Source: Candidatus Aenigmatarchaeota archaeon
GTDB lineage: Archaea; Aenigmatarchaeota; Aenigmatarchaeia; Aenigmatarchaeales; Aenigmatarchaeaceae
Reading direction: 5' to 3'
Length of the DNA stretch: 64,000 nt
Assembly: GCA_043814985.1 (NCBI GenBank)
Contig: JBDRJK010000014.1
Location: forward strand, 1-64,000
Shown in pieces: positions 30,001 to 63,000 of this stretch. A program made the position numbers. Each line of letters opens with the position of its first letter. Position 1 is the first letter of the stretch.

Positions 30001-33000
30001 ACCACCCAAGCTTCCAGTAATACACAGTTTAATTGCCTCATACCCCCTGCCTTCCATTAAAAGTTTGTGTCCCGGCAGGACCCCCAATACTGTTGATTCC
30101 TCAGGAGCGCCTAGCAGAATGGATGGTATGAAGTTAATGAAGGAATTAATCACACCAGACGTCACTAGAATAACAGCTGTTGGCAATGGACTGAACAAAA
30201 AGGACAAACCTAGAATCATTGGAATTGTGTTATTGGGATGCAGTCCTGGCAATAATCCTGCCACAACACCAAAAACAGTCCCTATTGCCAAGGCTATAAG
30301 CAAATCAAACATGTTTAAGAATTTGAATCAAGTGAGAAGAATCTAATTCACTACTGTCAGTAGTCATTCTTCTTTGATCAGAAGCTTCTTTGCCACTATT
30401 GGGAATGCGGGTCTTGTTATGAACACTCCAATCAAAACCCCGATTGTTGTAATGATTGCAAAGCCCTTCATCGCACCTATACCAATAAACATTAATGGGA
30501 CCATGGCTGCTATGATTGTTCCGGCAGCGCTGAATACTATGAAGAACGACCTCTTGATTCTCTGTTTGACTGTGTATGAATCCTTGTCTTTGCCGCCCAA
30601 CAATATTTCATCTATCATTATAATCTGGTCGTTGGTTCCTGTTCCGATGGCAGCAATTAAACCAGCAATGGATGGAAGGTCTAATGTCCATCCCAGCAAA
30701 CCAGCTGCTCCCAATGTAATTATCAACTCAGCCATGCTCCAAACCATCATCTGTAAGAGTATTTTGAATTTCCTGTACCTGATGAATATGACGGCCATGA
30801 CAGACAAACCAGCTATTCCAGCAGCCAACAAGGCTTCCCTGAAAAATTCACTTCCAAGAGTTGGTGATATCTCGTCTATCTTTATTGTCTCCAAGCTGAC
30901 AGGCAGTGAACCAGACTGCAAAATACTTTTCAACATTAATTGCTCCTCAAATGCCTCCTTCCTGTTTTCTCTGAACCCTGTTATGGCAGGGCTTGTCAGT
31001 GCCTTGCCCTTCAAATCAGCTGATATGCTTAGGTCAGTAATAACATTGTCGTCCAGATAAAGTGATATCCTGCCTTCCAGATACTTTGTTACTGAATTAG
31101 GATCTGATATAATTTTCATCGTATTGGTTACGCTGGCAAACTTTTCCGCACCTTCTTGTGTTATGAACACTTGGAAGTTAAACTCCCAGCCTCCTGACTG
31201 CTGTATGATTCTGGAAACGCATATGCCGGTCTGCTCTTGGATGCATACGGATTGAATATCATTACCAGTGAAAACAGTGAAGAGAAGAACAGCGCTGTTG
31301 TTTGTCAGGTTAATAACCTGGAAATCTATATCCTCAAGCTCGGAGCTTTCATTTTCCTTCAATGTTATACCTTCAACTATTATTTCATTGTTTATGAGTT
31401 CCAAACTATGCTCTTCATTTAGAGTTAAACTCCCAACACCATTATCAAAGTTCACAATTCTCGGTATCTTCCCGTCAAACTTGCCCTGCTTTGCCAACAG
31501 GTTCTCCACTTCTTCCTTGGAACCGCCAGCCATTTCTATTTGCACATATTTTTCCCCAGTCACGTCATTAATCCTCTGGAACTTGGCTTCCTTCAAGCCG
31601 AAAACATTTATTCTAGTCTCCAAGGTTCCTACTATCTGCTGCATTTCAGCATCCGTGACATTTTCCTTTGGCTTCAGCAATATTCTTGTTCCTCCAATAA
31701 GGTCCAGACCGAAGTTTAGATTTGTAGAAGAAGGTGTTGAAACCTCTATACCCAAACCAATATCCTTGTTGATTATTTCAAGCTTTCCTGAATGCATGAA
31801 CCTGAAATTACCAGTGAAATTCTCAAACTGGTAGAAGTCTTCAGGGGTATTAATGTTTACTTCATTCGCCCATGTTATGTATTCCCCTGTGTTGACAACA
31901 TTGTAGAATGAAGAGTTGACAGAAACATAATCGACCCTGACGCCGGTTTTGGGGAAGGGATTTATCAGGGCTATGGATATGAATACGGAAAATAGCATCA
32001 ACAAAATTCTCCAATTTTTTAACAAACCTAATTTCATTTTCCTTTCCTCTCCATATGCCATCTTAATAATGGTGTGGCGAAAAGCCATGTGTTCTGAAGA
32101 TCAACCAAGAGACCTATCAACAATATTGATGCAATCTGAGTTATGATAGAAGACAGAGACATTGTGTAAAGAGCAAACAATGCAACCATGGTTGCTGCTG
32201 TTGTGGTAAAACTAGTCTTGTAACTCTCTTTTAATTTTTCTTTCATGTCTCCACCACCTTTCAACAGCCTTGTGGTTATCATGACATCATCATCAACTGA
32301 ATAACCGATTATCATCAACAGCGCGGCGAAGCTTGCCAATGAAAGTTTTATGCCGATTAGTTGAGAGATGACCAATGTTTCTATGATGTCAAAAACAGGG
32401 GCCAGAGTTACGTAAAAGCTTATTATAGGAATCTTGAATATGAAAAGAATTGTTAGTGCCATGAAAATGAACGCCACAACAAGAACAATAAGAGCCTGCT
32501 GCAAAGATGCCGCACCCAGACTTGAACCGACTGTCTGGACAGAATAATCTTCAAAATCATAGCCATTATCGCTCAGTTCCTTTAGAATGTCATCAGAATC
32601 TATGCTGGCATCAAACTCAATGAAGATGGAATAGCCGGTTAAGCCTGAAGCTGTCCTGACATTCACGTCATACTCTTCCAATATATTCATTATTTCCTTG
32701 TCGTCAACAGCGCTTCCTGATTCCACTATTATCTGGGTCCCGCCCTTCAGGTCAATATCCAAATTAAGTCCTGTTGTTGAAATTTGCCAGAGCAAATAGC
32801 TTGAACACAATGCCAAAATAAATATTGGCACTATTAGTGACAATTTGTAATTCATAAGAAATAGATATGTTATTAAAGTATTTTAAGCTTAAATGATACT
32901 ATGAAAATAGGCATAGTCGGTGGGGGCATAAACGGCACTTTTTTGGCTTGGAAGCTCTCAAAGGAGCATGAAGTAACACTTTTTGAGAAAAAGAAGACAA

Positions 33001-60000: not shown

Positions 60001-63000
60001 TAGCGGCTCAACTCCTGTTAAAAATCCTATGACAATCAAGCCTATTAAGAGGGCAACCAGAACCTTGCTCAAGCCCTTAATTTCCTTGAAGATGTCAATA
60101 TCGGTTTTTCCAAGATTTTTCAGAACCAGACTTAAAATAATGAAAATCACTGCAGCTATCACCATTATGGCATAGGTATAGGAAAACAGTGTCCATGTCA
60201 GCATGAAGCATGAGAATGATATCAATGCCAGGCAAATGCTGCTTATAGTCTTCCTTTTCAAGGCATAAACGCCAGCGAACATTGTAAGCAGGATGAAGAA
60301 GAGAACCAATTGGTCCGTATCATAGGAACTGCCGAATGTTCTGACCAAGACCTGAGGCGCAGAAGCTACTAGGATCGCGCTAAAAAGGCCTCCATATTCG
60401 TTTGACAATTCTTTAACCAATAGAAATGCAGGAATTGCTATTATGGCACCATAAAAGGCAGATGCAAGGGCTGATGTTGTCAAAAGGCTCATGCCAAAAT
60501 TCTGCAGCAGCCAATAGAGCATGGTGGTTATATAGAACATGAGAGGGGCTGTGTAATCGTAATCAACAATTTTCCCCACATAATATGAAATTTCGTCCCA
60601 TACTGGCAGATGCCCCCAGTTTGCCATGTAATAGGTCTGCCTGTACATGAAAACAGGGTCGAATGACAATATCCTATCAGGGACTATGTTGAACGATCTT
60701 ATGTAAAAACTGAAGGCAACTATGCCTAACAGCACGAATACATACCAGTATTTTTTCAAAATATTTACTTTCATAATTACTAAGAAAAATTAGAAAACAA
60801 AGTATAAAAAGGTTCAGTCTTACCGTTCTACAACATGCCCAACAAGACAAAACTGACAGCAAATAGCACAATATTCTGCAGCAGAATCAGCAAGGCGAAC
60901 AGCTTGACCCTTCCCAGCCCCTGCAAGTAGTTGGTGTATATCATGTTAAAACCGAAAACCAGCCCAAAAGAGACTAGAGCCTTGAATATTAGCAGGCTTG
61001 GCAGATAGCTTTCGAAGAATGAGGCAAAGAGCCAGTCCGAAAACAGAATAACAAACAATATTCCAATCAAGAATACAGGTGTGTAGAGCAGGAATCCCTT
61101 CTTCAGGATATTTTTTGCATCCCCATGCCTCTTAAAGCCGTTGAGCTCTGATACTTTCGGGAACACCACAGAAGATATTGCTGTTGGAACTAGCAGTGTT
61201 GCAAAATAAAAGAGGAAGGCGAATGAAAAGTAACCGATTGCCTCCGGGGAGAAGAAGAGATTCAAGACAGGGATGATGATTGTAAACAGATTGATGATTA
61301 TCCATGTGAAATACACAGGCAAGCTGAACTTCATGAATATTTTTTTGACATCAAATTCCTCTGTTTTTTTAATCACCCCTTCTTTGAAAAAGAACTTCAA
61401 ATTGAATATGTTTCCGATTAAAAACCCGAAACTCCAGCCTAGAACTGCATAGGAGATTCCAAAGGAGCTCAGCAAGACACTAAGAACAGCAGAGCTTGTT
61501 AGCGTCAGGAACTGGGACAAGGCAAAAAGTTTGAACTTATGGAAGCCAAGGACAATGTTCTGGAAAACAATAAAGAATGTCATGCCTGCCATCAGAACCC
61601 CTGGAAACACCAGATAGTTGAGTGAGGCGTCCTTCAGGAATACTGAGGCTATTTGCTCGTTGAAAACTAGGATCAGGGCTATCAGGACTGAATAGCTGAA
61701 AATCCTTATTTTCAAGAACCATTTGATCAGGTAGCCGGCTTTTTCTCTGCTTGTACTCTTGAATTCAGAGATATATTTTGTTAAAGTTGCGTAAGCGCCG
61801 AACTCTATTAGAATAGGGAAGAACGTGAAAAGATAAGAGATGACCTTGAAGACGCCAAAATCTACAGCTCCCAGCTGGTTTGCAAGAAGCAGGTTACCAA
61901 AAAACAGGATTATGTTAGCGGAAAGGCTTGCTAAAAGTATTAAACCGCCGCTCCTTGCCAAGTCCCCTTTCAGAAGGGAAAGAATAGCCACTTTCATTTA
62001 ATTAAATAACCTCTTTTTAAAGATAAAAGTTACTTCCTAAAAACCTTGAAAATTATAGTAATGTTTATATGGTGGGCTATAATAATATTTTTAGGTGTTG
62101 TATTGAATAAAAAGGGTTTTATTAAGTTTAGTCTGCTTTCTATGGTATTTTTATCAATTATTGCAGTCATGGTCCTCTGGGTTCTACCAGCATTCGCTGA
62201 TGTTGATCCAGGAGAACTGCAGGGTTATGACTTTTGTGGTGGGTATCCTTGCCCTTCTTGGGTTAATTTGACAAGAGGAGACATGTTCTTTGCAGACGGA
62301 AATGATGTTTATATAATTGCCAACATCAGCTGTGCAAATCCCCCAGGAGAAAATATTTGTAATTCAAGCATGACTGTTGATGCCGATTTTTCCCAAATAG
62401 GAGGAAGCGATGTCCAGCCCGGTGTATTCAAGCAAAACGGAACAGATGCCAGCTGGGCTATTTTCGAGTTTAATGATACAGTAGACTTCACATCATTGTC
62501 AGTAGAACAGATTCAACCTAATAACATTACCATGAACGCAACAATTTTTAACACTACTTCTGATTCATACGAAACATATGACTTGCCCAGTTTTTTTGCT
62601 CCAGTATTGCTGGTTAACATGTCAACTTTCGGTTGCCCTTCAGAAGGTCAGCCGGGAGTCTTTTTCCCCGAGGTTCCGGGGTGGAATGCGTCAAATTCGT
62701 CTCCGGTATTTAGTCCTATACAGGCAGTGGGATGTACGCAAAACGTTTCATTGTGCTCTTATATGGACACATACGGTCCTGGGACATGGAACGGCACGCA
62801 CTGGTTGGTATGCGCACCCAACTTTGGAGGGTCAACAACAAACTTTACGGAGATAGCGGATGCAGGCAATTTCTCTGCCATACAAAACTTCACCATAGAA
62901 GTTCCGGGAAAAGCCAAAATCATTTTCCAGACAAATGTTAGTTTCGATTCCCAGCAAGAATCTCAGGCCATAATGGAATTCGCTATGAAAAGTGTTATGG

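Follow-up and report, generated by a model that had tools for sequence, protein, structure and literature searches.

For two radical SAM enzymes, HpnJ and calditol synthase, the proposed reaction remodels a sugar that is already attached to a membrane lipid, as set out in an excerpt of PMC13459092. HpnJ contracts a ring on its sugar and is not a methylase. The sugar diol-dehydratase AprD4 and the enzyme ArsL fall into the same similarity network, yet they bind no cobalamin, according to an extract of PMC12931638; for this reason a Rossmann domain of such a kind need not bind the cofactor.

The window analysed here, a 64,000-nucleotide stretch of DNA from the 808-kb genome of a tiny, symbiotic Aenigmatarchaeota (DPANN) archaeon, is read with moderate confidence as carrying a variable surface-glycosylation island in which B12-domain enzymes tailor the sugars of glycan precursors carried on dolichol (or on nucleotides) at the cytoplasmic face. 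The basis for this reading is gene context: seven B12-type radical enzymes lie among genes for surface sugars, and therefore an unusual sugar coat is probably made. Such a coat would be strain-variable and heavily modified. In a literature search, no paper on arrays of B12-type radical SAM genes associated with such glycosylation genes was found.

The radical SAM array

The island comprises 26 genes, 22 of them on the + strand, separated by gaps of at most 130 bp and mostly below 55 bp. Between 37807 and 57068 lie seven radical SAM paralogs with an N-terminal B12-binding domain; they are intact, soluble and free of transmembrane segments, and look functional. Their company in the island consists of six GT2 genes, two membrane transferases of GT-C type, three SAM methyltransferases, one SPASM radical SAM gene, two flippase-type proteins and AglB. 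The paralogs share 24-43% pairwise identity, the upper value being that of paralogs 2 and 3.

37807..39309, + strand: paralog 1, 500 aa; Radical_SAM 92.6 bits, B12-binding 71.8 bits; CPYGCIFC motif
40966..42288, + strand: paralog 2, 440 aa; Pfam Radical_SAM and B12-binding
42290..43681, + strand: paralog 3, 463 aa; Pfam Radical_SAM and B12-binding
44404..45762, + strand: paralog 4, 452 aa; Pfam Radical_SAM and B12-binding
45759..47060, + strand: paralog 5, 433 aa; Pfam Radical_SAM and B12-binding
49509..50918, + strand: paralog 6, 469 aa; Pfam Radical_SAM and B12-binding
55698..57068, + strand: paralog 7, B12-domain-like, 456 aa; Radical_SAM 71.9 bits; CYWGRCSFC motif

Six window paralogs exceed the cut-off of the B12-binding family PF02310 (32.1 bits), with scores of 49-73 bits, while paralog 7 stays below it at 29.4 bits and has an atypical cluster motif, CX4CX2C instead of CX3CX2C. 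The whole genome yields eight B12-binding matches, all of them these radical SAM genes. The eighth copy, at C19:90809, scores 92 bits and has a 343-aa GT2 one or two genes away and another GT2 close by. Seven of the eight are thus packed in 19.3 kb, for which random placement under a simple model gives p ~1e-8. The array that the genome-wide survey's note had placed within a glycosylation island is confirmed by Pfam for seven genes, plus an eighth on another contig. As to the assembly, the region 37500-57400 is matched by contigs from three runs of two studies, each piece with 0-2 differences.

Glycan assembly genes and the proposed pathway

The six GT2 genes, three methyltransferases, SPASM, LPG_synthase_TM, PMT_2, STT3 and Polysacc_synt proteins that had been listed were all recovered by Pfam. 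The glycan assembly genes are as follows.

33802..34539, + strand: GT2, dolichyl-phosphate hexose synthase-like (AglJ/DPM-like), 245 aa, soluble; PF00535 69.8 bits
36878..37819, + strand: flippase-like membrane protein (LPG_synthase_TM); PF03706 140.7 bits
39315..40913, - strand: GT-C membrane glycosyltransferase (PMT_2/ArnT-like); PF13231 55.9 bits; ~9-11 hydrophobic segments
47678..48433, + strand: soluble GT2 glycosyltransferase; PF00535 109.2 bits
50935..51576, + strand: GT2c, short GT2-like protein, partner of paralog 6; PF00535 35.5 bits, partial profile
51607..52548, + strand: GT2 glycosyltransferase; PF00535 63.5 bits
53212..54705, + strand: GTC2, polytopic membrane protein; many hydrophobic segments, no Pfam match
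57078..58025, + strand: GT2e, membrane-anchored GT2; PF00535 81.7 bits; C-terminal TM helices, segments at 235-313
58022..58723, - strand: GT2, polyprenyl-phosphate sugar synthase-like (PpgS/AglJ-like); PpgS 69.5 bits, AglJ 64.6 bits, both under cut-offs
58720..60774, - strand: AglB oligosaccharyltransferase; STT3 82.7 bits; WWDPG motif at residue 440
60828..61997, - strand: Wzx-type oligosaccharide flippase; Polysacc_synt 61.5 bits; right flank with the surface-protein gene

The GT2 at 33802 lacks TM segments and matches AglJ (78 bits) and a Dol-P-hexose transferase family (56 bits), both under cut-offs. The LPG_synthase_TM protein passes the cut-off of the flippase-like domain TIGR00374 (89.8 against 43.2 bits). 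GTC2, absent from the earlier gene list, matches the LA_3751/LA_3752 putative glycosyltransferase family at 49.7 bits (cut-off 200); its orthologs (36-43%) adjoin radical SAM genes in six loci, and it is probably the second GT-C transferase of the island.

The remaining genes are listed next.

32901..33869, + strand: geranylgeranyl-reductase-family (GGR) flavoprotein; TIGR02032 126 bits, under the cut-off of 158.8
34536..35807, + strand: FAD amine-oxidase/phytoene-desaturase-type oxidoreductase; PF01593 75.7 bits
35807..36868, + strand: DUF362 protein; PF04015 133.5 bits; recurrent in relatives' islands
43721..44407, + strand: SAM methyltransferase 1; Methyltransf_11 73.4 bits
47113..47691, + strand: SAM methyltransferase-like protein 2, weak; Methyltransf_23 28.4 bits (cut-off 27); no NCBIfam match
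48411..49460, + strand: SPASM-domain radical SAM enzyme; Radical_SAM 72 bits, SPASM 24.5 bits
52545..53207, + strand: SAM methyltransferase 3; Methyltransf_11 62.4 bits
54836..55720, + strand: endonuclease-like gene (NUMOD3 + Vsr/DUF559 nuclease); Vsr 38.2, NUMOD3 30.2, DUF559 24.8 bits

The three genes at 32901-36868 and the endonuclease-like gene were likewise missing from the earlier list. The latter is probably a mobile insertion that separates GTC2 from paralog 7; relatives have orthologous GTC2-radical SAM junctions without it. The oxidoreductase at 34536 scores 332.6 bits against NF005560, above its cut-off of 252, a model titled only "hypothetical protein". The SPASM enzyme carries a CNNRCLMC motif and 14 Cys residues, and its PDB sequence matches are SkfB and cytosylglucuronate decarboxylase.

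Families and protein architecture suggest a pathway in which soluble and membrane-anchored GT2 enzymes would assemble sugars on dolichyl phosphate, on the cytoplasmic side of the membrane, after which the Wzx-type flippase and AglB would export the glycan and attach it to surface proteins. Two "three-component" side branches may add further sugars outside, one with PMT_2 and one with GTC2 as its GT-C transferase; the other components of each are a flippase-like protein and a GT2 that resembles Dol-P-sugar synthases. Judging from gene context only, the tailoring set would comprise the seven B12-domain enzymes, the SPASM enzyme, the three SAM methyltransferases and the flavoprotein/DUF362 pair; the GGR-family flavoprotein may act on the isoprenoid carrier. 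Tailoring would precede flipping and occur on lipid-linked intermediates or, less likely, on nucleotide-linked ones. A point against the sugar reading is that nucleotide-sugar enzymes are absent from the island in the window. In each radical SAM enzyme, SAM would be split at the 4Fe-4S cluster and a hydrogen removed from an unactivated sugar carbon, and then either a methyl group would be delivered from methylcobalamin or the sugar would be rearranged or dehydrated, in an HpnJ- or AprD4-like manner.

Gene context in related genomes

The radical SAM family occurs in 34 of the order's 41 genomes (counting G000), in 1-9 mostly clustered copies; its previously noted presence in 17 of 21 genomes was reproduced for G000-G020 at E<=1e-20. 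Neighbours were counted in 20 loci from 13 related genomes, which hold 52 radical SAM genes. A glycosyltransferase is the direct neighbour of 27 of these genes and lies at most two genes away from 39, and any glycan gene lies within that distance of 42. In 18 of the 20 loci, the family is embedded with AglB, flippases, GT2/GT4/GT-C transferases and nucleotide-sugar enzymes, which upholds the surface-glycan or glycolipid link drawn earlier. Neighbours include AglB (7 loci), Wzx, GT4, Alg13/14, an AglH-type GT, NDP-sugar epimerases/dehydratases, nucleotidyltransferases, a UDP-sugar dehydrogenase, a DegT aminotransferase, deacetylases and a carbamoyltransferase, as well as ten SPASM genes and four DUF362 genes, one with a 4Fe-4S domain. 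The other two loci, L010 and L020, show no AglB- or flippase-linked island: the former holds UbiA, ATP-grasp and other radical SAM genes, with GT-C and GT4 only at its far end, and the latter housekeeping genes.

The slot itself is constant, with secDF-GGR on one side and aglB-wzx-surface protein on the other, and the proteins encoded in these flanks (SecD, SecF, GGR, AglB, Wzx and the surface protein) keep 47-69% identity from genome to genome. AglB orthologs are 47-59% identical in seven loci, Wzx orthologs (51-56%) adjoin aglB, and the GT2 at 58022 adjoins aglB in most relatives (L003, L009, L012, L015). The surface protein had been described as of PGF-pre-PGF type; the ORF at 62046-63998 (the part inside the window) has no Pfam family at E<=0.001, so that this label is not confirmed for that part.

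Island content, by contrast with this slot, varies even within one genus, where the closest match to paralog 2 reaches no more than 36-38% identity. Paralog 1 has an ortholog in G013 (59%), as does the DUF362 protein (77%), paralog 3 one in G012 (64%), and paralog 4 is closest to a G001 gene (45%). The paralog 5 ortholog in G003 (51%) adjoins a SPASM gene and a methyltransferase gene. Paralog 6 orthologs in G003 and G006 (63-69%) are each followed by a GT2c ortholog, a pairing that 3 of 3 close orthologs show; the G006 version of GT2c is a 461-aa fusion protein that also has a SAM methyltransferase domain. In a quick tree, a GT2e- or GT-C-type gene adjoins 6 of the 8 rows of the paralog 7 clade. 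The order GTC2-radical SAM-GT2e recurs in L001, L019, L015, L014 and L004, and GT2e orthologs are 45-52% identical in four loci. On the best reading, every old subfamily of the radical SAM genes keeps to particular transferase partners.

Chemistry and cofactor of the paralogs

None of the seven paralogs reaches a curated NCBIfam cut-off. HpnJ is the top profile for six of them, at 179-244 bits against a cut-off of 577.6 (228 bits for paralog 2, and 244 for paralog 7, the most HpnJ-like); paralog 1 best matches the Sden_1168 P-methyltransferase family (247.6 bits, cut-off 575). With HpnJ as top profile and AprD4 as top fold, the serial C-methylation proposed in the genome-wide survey's note finds no specific support. 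Both enzymes do serve as precedents for chemistry on sugars, AprD4 being one that acts on a sugar. Its statement that such chemistry is known from antibiotics and not from cell-surface glycans was too strong, given the lipid-attached sugars on which HpnJ and calditol synthase are proposed to act (PMC13459092, in the excerpt mentioned above).

It is conceivable, though unlikely, that the paralogs tailor sugars without cobalamin, as radical dehydratases, epimerases or ring-contracting enzymes whose Rossmann domain is structural as in AprD4; no host cobamide would then be needed for them. AprD4 is the top PDB match by sequence (E 9e-24), and the AlphaFold2 model of paralog 2 (pLDDT 87.8), whose fold matches are TsrM, AprD4, MgmA, CysS, OxsB and TokK, gives it the highest TM-score in both normalisations (0.81/0.79), so that in fold the cobalamin-free AprD4 is as near as the true cobalamin enzymes are. 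The sub-threshold B12 domain of paralog 7 points the same way. However, sequence similarity to AprD4 is confined to the radical SAM core (in paralog 2, residues 146-374), and its profile reaches only 41-107 bits against a cut-off of 500. Besides its PF02310 scores, the N-terminal domain shows sequence alignment with the cobalamin domains of three enzymes, TokK (from residue 45), OxsB (from 25) and MgmA (from 86), and this alignment takes in the shared GGPH stretch. Paralogs 1-5 have a GG-x-H motif, whose form in paralogs 2 and 3 is the GGPH of TokK. Cobalamin is likely used by the paralogs. The host cobamide dependence claimed earlier is plausible but unproven: a search of the 91%-complete genome at E<=0.01 gave no CbiB, CobS, PduO-type adenosyltransferase or FecCD/BtuC permease, an absence that also counts for a cobalamin-free role, and a Rossmann domain of the AprD4/ArsL type need not bind cobalamin.

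Lipids or peptides as less likely substrates

It is rather improbable that isoprenoid lipids, either the dolichol carrier or archaeol/GDGT, are modified instead of sugars by methylation, cyclisation or cross-linking. Archaeal lipids are the substrates of the B12-cluster radical SAM enzymes GrsA/GrsB and Gmm, the GMGT methylase (excerpt of PMC13459092), the GGR-family reductase and a CrtI-like flavoprotein stand at the head of the island and count among the neighbours, L003, L006 and L010 have UbiA prenyltransferases beside family members, and the ladderane-lipid family TIGR04072 scores 100-144 bits. However, GGR is a conserved flank (orthologs of 53-67% identity mark the edge of the island in G012, G003 and G001) and not a variable member, and the glycosyltransferases near 39 of the 52 relatives' genes, with subfamilies accompanying specific GT2 or GT-C genes, argue for sugars. 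Paralog sets differ within one genus, and surface-glycan diversity is therefore a better fit than core-lipid chemistry. Least credible is the modification of peptides or proteins, whether surface proteins C-methylated before export or a ribosomal peptide matured, in the manner of PoyC, Mmp10 or MgmA: MgmA, the MCR glutamine methylase, is the second-best PDB sequence match, partial NCBIfam matches extend to it, RiPP C-methyltransferases and ApyD (up to 168 bits), a surface-protein gene flanks the island and Bathyarchaeota arrays adjoin giant secreted PQQ-propeller proteins instead of glycan genes, yet every one of these profile matches is far under its cut-off, the tight packing leaves no obvious precursor-peptide gene, and the conserved partners are glycosyltransferases rather than peptidases or peptide-system transporters.

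The wider family

The wider family speaks partly against sugar tailoring, the preferred reading: its members (29-42% identity, many phyla) have a glycan-type gene at most four genes away in only 29 of 58 loci, a raw count without background control. In favour of that reading, loci combining GT2, radical SAM (with or without SPASM) and GT-C genes occur in Iainarchaeum, Nanoarchaeota, Elusimicrobia, Patescibacteria and Gammaproteobacteria.

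Gene content of the island

The gene inventory drawn up in the genome-wide survey's note is borne out by the ORF listing and by Pfam. Seven genes of the island, numbered here by position as paralogs 1 to 7, encode an N-terminal B12-binding domain followed by the Radical_SAM core.

B12-domain radical SAM genes of the window (domains assigned by Pfam)
37807-39309, + strand: paralog 1, B12-binding and Radical_SAM
40966-42288, + strand: paralog 2, B12-binding and Radical_SAM
42290-43681, + strand: paralog 3, B12-binding and Radical_SAM
44404-45762, + strand: paralog 4, B12-binding and Radical_SAM
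45759-47060, + strand: paralog 5, B12-binding and Radical_SAM
49509-50918, + strand: paralog 6, B12-binding and Radical_SAM
55698-57068, + strand: paralog 7, B12-binding and Radical_SAM

None of the seven is interrupted, and none carries a hydrophobic segment of the membrane-protein type. The eighth copy listed by the survey is indeed present on another contig (C19:90809), where it follows a 343-aa GT2 gene at a distance of one or two genes and has another GT2 nearby. The whole 808-kb genome (91% complete) gives eight B12-binding matches, all of this radical SAM kind. Seven of the eight genes lie within 19.3 kb, which a simple model of random placement would produce with a probability of about 1e-8; by arithmetic, the radical SAM paralogs amount to 11.1 kb of genes, about 1.4% of the genome. 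The island also holds six GT2 genes, three SAM methyltransferase genes (one a weak match), one SPASM radical SAM gene, an LPG_synthase_TM flippase-like gene, a PMT_2 GT-C gene, aglB and a Polysacc_synt flippase gene. Absent from the survey's list are a polytopic GT-C-like protein (53212-54705, hereafter GTC2), an endonuclease-like gene (54836-55720) and the head of the island, which encodes a GGR-family reductase and a CrtI-like flavoprotein with a DUF362 protein behind the latter.

The genes of the island are closely spaced, no gap exceeding 130 bp, and no RNA family reaches the Rfam gathering score within the window. A search for RNA data over 40966-47060 turned up none. The assembly was checked against low-depth DNA contigs: those of three DNA runs from two studies agree with the island stretch almost letter for letter. 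In one run positions 54764-55427 are uncovered, and no contig bridges them. The few 'skips' listed in this comparison have short sides (20-33 letters). The G+C content is 0.32-0.34 at 44001-48000 and 52001-56000, against about 0.37-0.44 in the rest of the window, which is compatible with imported cassettes in these two parts of the island.

Conservation and gene neighbourhood in the order

With paralog 2 as the query, 34 of the 41 genomes of the order (the window's own genome included) give a match at E<=1e-20. Copy number ranges from 1 to 9, and most copies are clustered; of the 21 genomes G000-G020, 17 have a match, in agreement with the survey. Twenty loci were fetched from 13 genomes, their ORFs were called and matched to the island proteins, and 130 unmatched neighbours were submitted to Pfam. 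The radical SAM genes stand among glycan genes in 18 of these 20 loci. Their neighbours there include AglB (7 loci), Wzx, GT2, GT4, Alg13/14, AglH-type and GT-C glycosyltransferases, together with NDP-sugar epimerases/dehydratases, nucleotidyltransferases, UDP-sugar dehydrogenase, DegT aminotransferases, polysaccharide deacetylases, one carbamoyltransferase, SAM methyltransferases and SPASM radical SAM genes. Counted over the 20 loci, a glycosyltransferase directly adjoins the radical SAM gene in 27/52 cases and lies within two genes of it in 39/52, while any glycan gene is found within two genes in 42/52 and a GT-C in 15/52. The two exceptions are L020, whose neighbours are housekeeping genes, and L010 (G006:C1:285000-304999), where two family members lie near a UbiA prenyltransferase, an ATP-grasp protein, an HMPTM-like radical SAM gene and another radical SAM gene. 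L010 also carries four large ORFs (300-949 aa) lacking a Pfam match, with GT-C and GT4 only at its far end; this context is possibly that of a lipid or small-molecule pathway.

The flanks of the island are shared in four relatives (G012, G003, G001 and G023): TctA, SecD, SecF and GGR lie at one end, AglB, Wzx and a surface protein at the opposite end, with identities of 46-69%. Between these flanks, genomes of the same genus have five matches versus eight here, and their best match to paralog 2 reaches 36-38%. The nearest orthologs of the window's paralogs are spread over different genomes.

Nearest orthologs of the island's radical SAM paralogs
Paralog 1: G013, 59% identity
Paralog 3: G012, 64%
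Paralog 4: G001, 45%
Paralog 5: G003, 51%
Paralog 6: G003 and G006, 63-69%
Paralog 7: G012, 51%

A tree of 54 sequences, built by a quick method with SH-aLRT support only, has at least ten deep lineages. Because the lineages are deep and the nearest orthologs lie in different genomes, the array is best read as a mosaic of old subfamilies. Recent tandem duplication was considered as the origin of the array and rejected, since pairwise identity among paralogs 1-7 is 24-43% and each of the ten or more deep lineages has orthologs in other genera. A fixed slot with a variable mosaic interior is known behaviour of surface-glycan islands.

Some partner genes travel with particular subfamilies. A short GT2-like gene (GT2c, 50935-51576) directly follows paralog 6 in the window, in G003 and in G006. 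In L012 of G006 (G006:C1; 2597-3982, - strand), a single protein of 461 aa combines a GT2c-like domain with a SAM methyltransferase domain, a Rosetta-stone sign hinting that GT2c, the methyltransferase and paralog 6 may share one substrate. In the clade of paralog 7 and its sister, a direct neighbour is either of GT-C type or of the type of GT2e, a membrane-anchored GT2 (57078-58025), in 6 of 8 rows of the quick tree. The order GTC2 - radical SAM - GT2e is seen again in several genomes, and the subfamily of the radical SAM gene that adjoins GT2e is not the same in every genome. A PDB sequence search with GTC2 gave no match at E<=0.01. The DUF362 protein (35807-36868, + strand) recurs in L005, L006, L007 and L015, with a 77% ortholog in G013 and, in one copy, a 4Fe-4S ferredoxin insert; it could supply the radical SAM enzymes with electrons.

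Glycosylation machinery and proposed pathway

AglB scores 82.7 bits against PF02516 (cut-off 24.5) and carries WWDPG, the WWDxG catalytic motif, at residue 440; its 49 bits against the archaeosortase-linked TIGR04154 fall below the cut-off of 450. The Polysacc_synt gene adjoins aglB, and this arrangement, together with the GT2 genes, is found in seven loci of relatives. The GT2 genes at 33802 and 58022 match AglJ, Dol-P-hexose transferase, PpgS and ArnC-type models, all below their cut-offs, and in GT2e the GT2 domain is followed by C-terminal TM helices. PMT_2 (55.9 bits) and LPG_synthase_TM (140.7 bits) are accompanied by GTC2. In three-component extracytoplasmic glycosylation, a lipid-linked monosaccharide is made inside the cell, flipped and transferred outside. 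Judged from the encoded protein families, the candidate GT2 enzymes, a flippase-like protein and two GT-C proteins would give the island this layout.

Besides the gene families, their order and their conservation, the sequences show that the radical SAM proteins are soluble and that the GT-C, flippase and GT2e proteins are membrane proteins. In the pathway that we propose, GT2 enzymes would load sugars onto dolichyl phosphate at the inner face of the membrane. The radical SAM enzymes would then take hydrogen from sugar carbons of these dolichyl-phosphate intermediates, after which the sugar could be methylated via methylcobalamin, or else rearranged or dehydrated. Further changes may be made by the SAM methyltransferases and by the flavoprotein/DUF362 pair. 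Wzx and the flippase-like protein would carry the products outward, where AglB and the GT-C proteins would join them to surface proteins or to a growing glycan. The survey's proposal of a tailored surface glycan is backed by conserved context; its chemistry may be any of several options.

Enzyme class and the cobalamin question

The CX3CX2C motif of the radical SAM 4Fe-4S cluster is present in six of the seven paralogs and reads CX4CX2C in paralog 7. Against the B12-binding Rossmann domain PF02310 (cut-off 32.1 bits), six of the seven score 49-73 bits and the eighth copy 90-92 bits; paralog 7, at 29.4 bits, falls under the cut-off. The AlphaFold2 model of paralog 2 (pLDDT 87.8) superimposes on TsrM, MgmA, CysS, OxsB and TokK with TM-scores of 0.67-0.75 and obtains its highest TM-score, 0.81/0.79, with AprD4.

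One reading keeps the role in glycan synthesis and dispenses with cobalamin. According to a 2026 review, no protein ligand to cobalt defines the family, no sequence motif marks cobalamin binding, and AprD4 and ArsL work without cobalamin though they belong to the same similarity network (PMC12931638). Where TokK has Trp76 and Trp215, the alignment gives paralog 2 a conserved Thr-Pro and an Ile, respectively. The N-terminal domain of paralog 2 aligns with the cobalamin domains of TokK, OxsB and MgmA and not with the N-terminal domain of AprD4, and a GG-x-H motif is found in paralogs 1-5; paralogs 2 and 3 have it in the form GGPH, which TokK shares. Cobalamin binding is favoured because of the PF02310 matches, this domain alignment and the GG-x-H motif; to judge from sequence, the paralogs likely use cobalamin, and a cobalamin-free version of the same glycan role appears unlikely.

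The survey had also made the organism dependent on host cobamide. Searches for CbiB, CobS, the PduO-type adenosyltransferase and FecCD/BtuC permeases, positive in 7 to 14 of 14 control genomes, found none of the four at E<=0.01 in the 91%-complete genome. Since the first three were not found, the organism appears not to make cobamides; the FecCD/BtuC result means that no standard cobamide uptake permease was detected at that threshold either. The dependence on the host that the survey claimed is plausible. The window also groups NrdR with the class III anaerobic ribonucleotide reductase NrdD and its radical SAM activase (13595-16846, + strand); with a class III NrdD present, a need for B12 does not seem to stem from deoxyribonucleotide synthesis.

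Nearest characterised relatives and the range of chemistry

None of paralogs 1-7 reaches an NCBIfam cut-off. The best profile for six of the seven, matched over nearly the full length, is HpnJ (TIGR03471, cut-off 577.6; 179-244 bits for paralogs 1-7 and 171 bits for the eighth copy, all below), followed by BchE (TIGR02026, cut-off 481; 72-167 bits for the window paralogs and 211 bits for the eighth copy, likewise below). The profile nearest to paralog 1 is the Sden_1168 P-methyltransferase family (248 bits, cut-off 575), and the AprD4 family (NF033070, cut-off 500) is matched at 41-107 bits in the radical SAM core only. In PDB sequence searches, paralog 2 retrieves AprD4 first, over the radical SAM core only, then MgmA/QCMT, TokK, TsrM and OxsB, whereas paralog 7 is closest to OxsB. 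TIGR04295, named 'B12_rSAM_oligo', gives 55-97 bits against a cut-off of 400; our own reading of this name suggests that its curators had met such genes near oligosaccharide loci.

The nearest characterised relatives contract a ring (HpnJ, OxsB), cyclise oxidatively (BchE) or dehydrate their substrate (AprD4) as often as they methylate it. Consequently, the 'serial C-methylation' of sugars put forward by the survey is not singled out and becomes one possibility among several.

Comparison with known systems

The Agl clusters of Haloferax volcanii and Methanococcus resemble the island in grouping AglB, a Wzx-type flippase, AglJ/Dol-P-hexose synthase-like GT2 enzymes and SAM methyltransferases. 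They differ in that all Agl-family profile matches of the island stay below cut-offs, and we know of no characterised Agl pathway with radical SAM enzymes. The Arn and Gtr systems and the mycobacterial polyprenyl-phosphate sugar donors with GT-C transferases are examples of three-component glycosylation, and the island likewise encodes a GT-C transferase and a flippase-like protein, with a candidate GT2 that resembles polyprenyl-phosphate sugar synthases. Before the lipid-linked sugar of the Arn and DPA pathways is used, a deformylase or an FAD/NAD epimerase pair modifies it; here, the proposed modifiers are radical SAM enzymes.

The HpnI-HpnK-HpnJ system, which converts bacteriohopanetetrol glucosamine to cyclitol ether, is similar in that a GT2 places a sugar on a membrane lipid and an adjoining B12-domain radical SAM enzyme reworks it. 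It is unlike the island in having one such enzyme, versus an array of seven here in an archaeon. Neither hopanoid (hpn) genes nor the HpnI/HpnK cluster setting was found at the island; the GT2 adjoining the eighth copy reaches 50 bits against HpnI (cut-off 310), and GT2e gives no HpnI match. In a review of lipid-modifying radical SAM enzymes, HpnJ and calditol synthase are radical SAM enzymes for which contraction of a sugar that a membrane lipid already carries is proposed, the mechanism and cofactor use of HpnJ being still unproven (PMC13459092). AprD4, the radical SAM 1,2-diol dehydratase of apramycin synthesis (PDB 6FD2), shares a sugar substrate (paromamine), the best PDB sequence match and, over the full length, the highest TM-score to the paralog 2 model; it differs in its antibiotic pathway, in a sequence likeness limited to the radical SAM core and in binding no cobalamin (PMC12931638). 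GenK, GenD1, Fms7, MoeK5 and Fom3 are listed in that review (PMC12931638). They act on sugars or on small phospho-linked alcohols. Compared by description, these C-methyltransferases of antibiotic sugars and phosphonates have the same N-terminal B12 domain followed by a radical SAM core, and they belong to antibiotic clusters, in contrast to the AglB-linked surface-glycan island studied here.

Action on isoprenoid lipids has archaeal precedents of the same domain class, GrsA/GrsB and the GMGT methylase Gmm, which are described as B12-cluster enzymes acting on archaeal lipid chains (PMC13459092). Compared by description, they differ from the island enzymes in that their substrates are tetraether hydrocarbon chains, whereas the context here is glycan and not lipid. 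A lipid substrate is quite improbable. Peptides or proteins as substrates are very improbable.

The wider family

At E<=1e-20, paralog 2 has more than 6364 protein matches, under generic names only, in many bacterial and archaeal phyla including Patescibacteria; one homolog of 60% identity is from a 'Candidatus Aenigmatarchaeota archaeon', in line with the placement of the genome. A genome scan of this wider family found 601 relatives and yielded 78 loci at 29-42% identity, 59 of which were taken for neighbour labelling (mostly the shortest were left out); one had no ORF at the match, leaving n=58. Of these 58 loci, 29 have one or more glycan-type genes no further than four genes away, a raw count made without background control on crude longest-ORF calls, which may be wrong in GC-rich genomes. 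The module of GT2, radical SAM (in some cases with SPASM) and GT-C is found in loci of Iainarchaeum, Nanoarchaeota, Elusimicrobia, Patescibacteria and Gammaproteobacteria. Five Bathyarchaeota loci (L032, L033, L046, L073 and L075) contain arrays of related B12-domain radical SAM genes with SPASM genes, adjoining PQQ/beta-propeller proteins of 750-1000 aa and other giant secreted proteins; no glycosyltransferase was found within four genes of these arrays. The glycan link is therefore strong in the Aenigmatarchaeota clades and recurrent elsewhere, but it does not extend to the superfamily as a whole.

For antibiotics, the tailoring of sugars by radical SAM enzymes is established; for two lipid head groups, it has been proposed. 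Full-text searches, which covered few subscription journals, found no paper that places it in protein N-glycosylation or archaeal surface glycans, and none linking B12-type radical SAM enzymes to AglB, N-glycosylation, DPANN, Aenigmarchaeota or polysaccharide C-methylation. The words 'glycan', 'polysaccharide' and 'archaea' are absent from the 2026 review on radical SAM enzymes that depend on B12 (PMC12931638), as are 'dolichol' and 'glycan' from the 2026 review of lipid-modifying enzymes (PMC13459092). Tentatively, an order of genome-reduced DPANN archaea, and similar modules in CPR bacteria and other anaerobes, might alter lipid-linked sugars by a series of radical reactions (C-methylation, deoxygenation or contraction of the ring to give carbocyclic sugars), build N-glycans with units unknown in any protein glycan, and obtain cobamide from the host or community, so that coat diversity would be tied to vitamin piracy. 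If the glycan-tailoring reading is right, these islands would be a large source of radical chemistry on carbohydrates, broad in phylogenetic spread and so far untouched, a symbiont devoid of cobamide synthesis would have a concrete reason to keep eight cobamide-type enzymes, and the surface coat would be a trait under diversifying pressure. As defined units of three genes, the conserved GT2 - radical SAM - GT-C modules lend themselves to expression and assay.

Possible homing elements

The endonuclease-like gene of the window (54836-55720, + strand) is free-standing and combines a NUMOD3 motif with a Vsr/DUF559-type nuclease domain. It stands between GTC2 and paralog 7, overlapping the start of the latter by 23 bases, and is missing from the orthologous junctions of relatives. 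A direct-repeat search around it returned short low-complexity pairs only and no duplicated gene end. In L003 (G017:C1; 6882-9317, - strand), an 811-aa B12-domain radical SAM ORF contains an insertion of about 370 residues with LAGLIDADG_3. Because it separates the B12 domain from the radical SAM core, directly before the cluster motif, this insertion resembles an intein within an enzyme of a glycan island. In L007 (G029:C47; 18445-19617, + strand), a homing-endonuclease gene with LAGLIDADG_2 and NUMOD3 is located directly upstream of a paralog 7-type radical SAM gene. Taken together, the three cases make these radical SAM genes seem repeated targets of homing elements.
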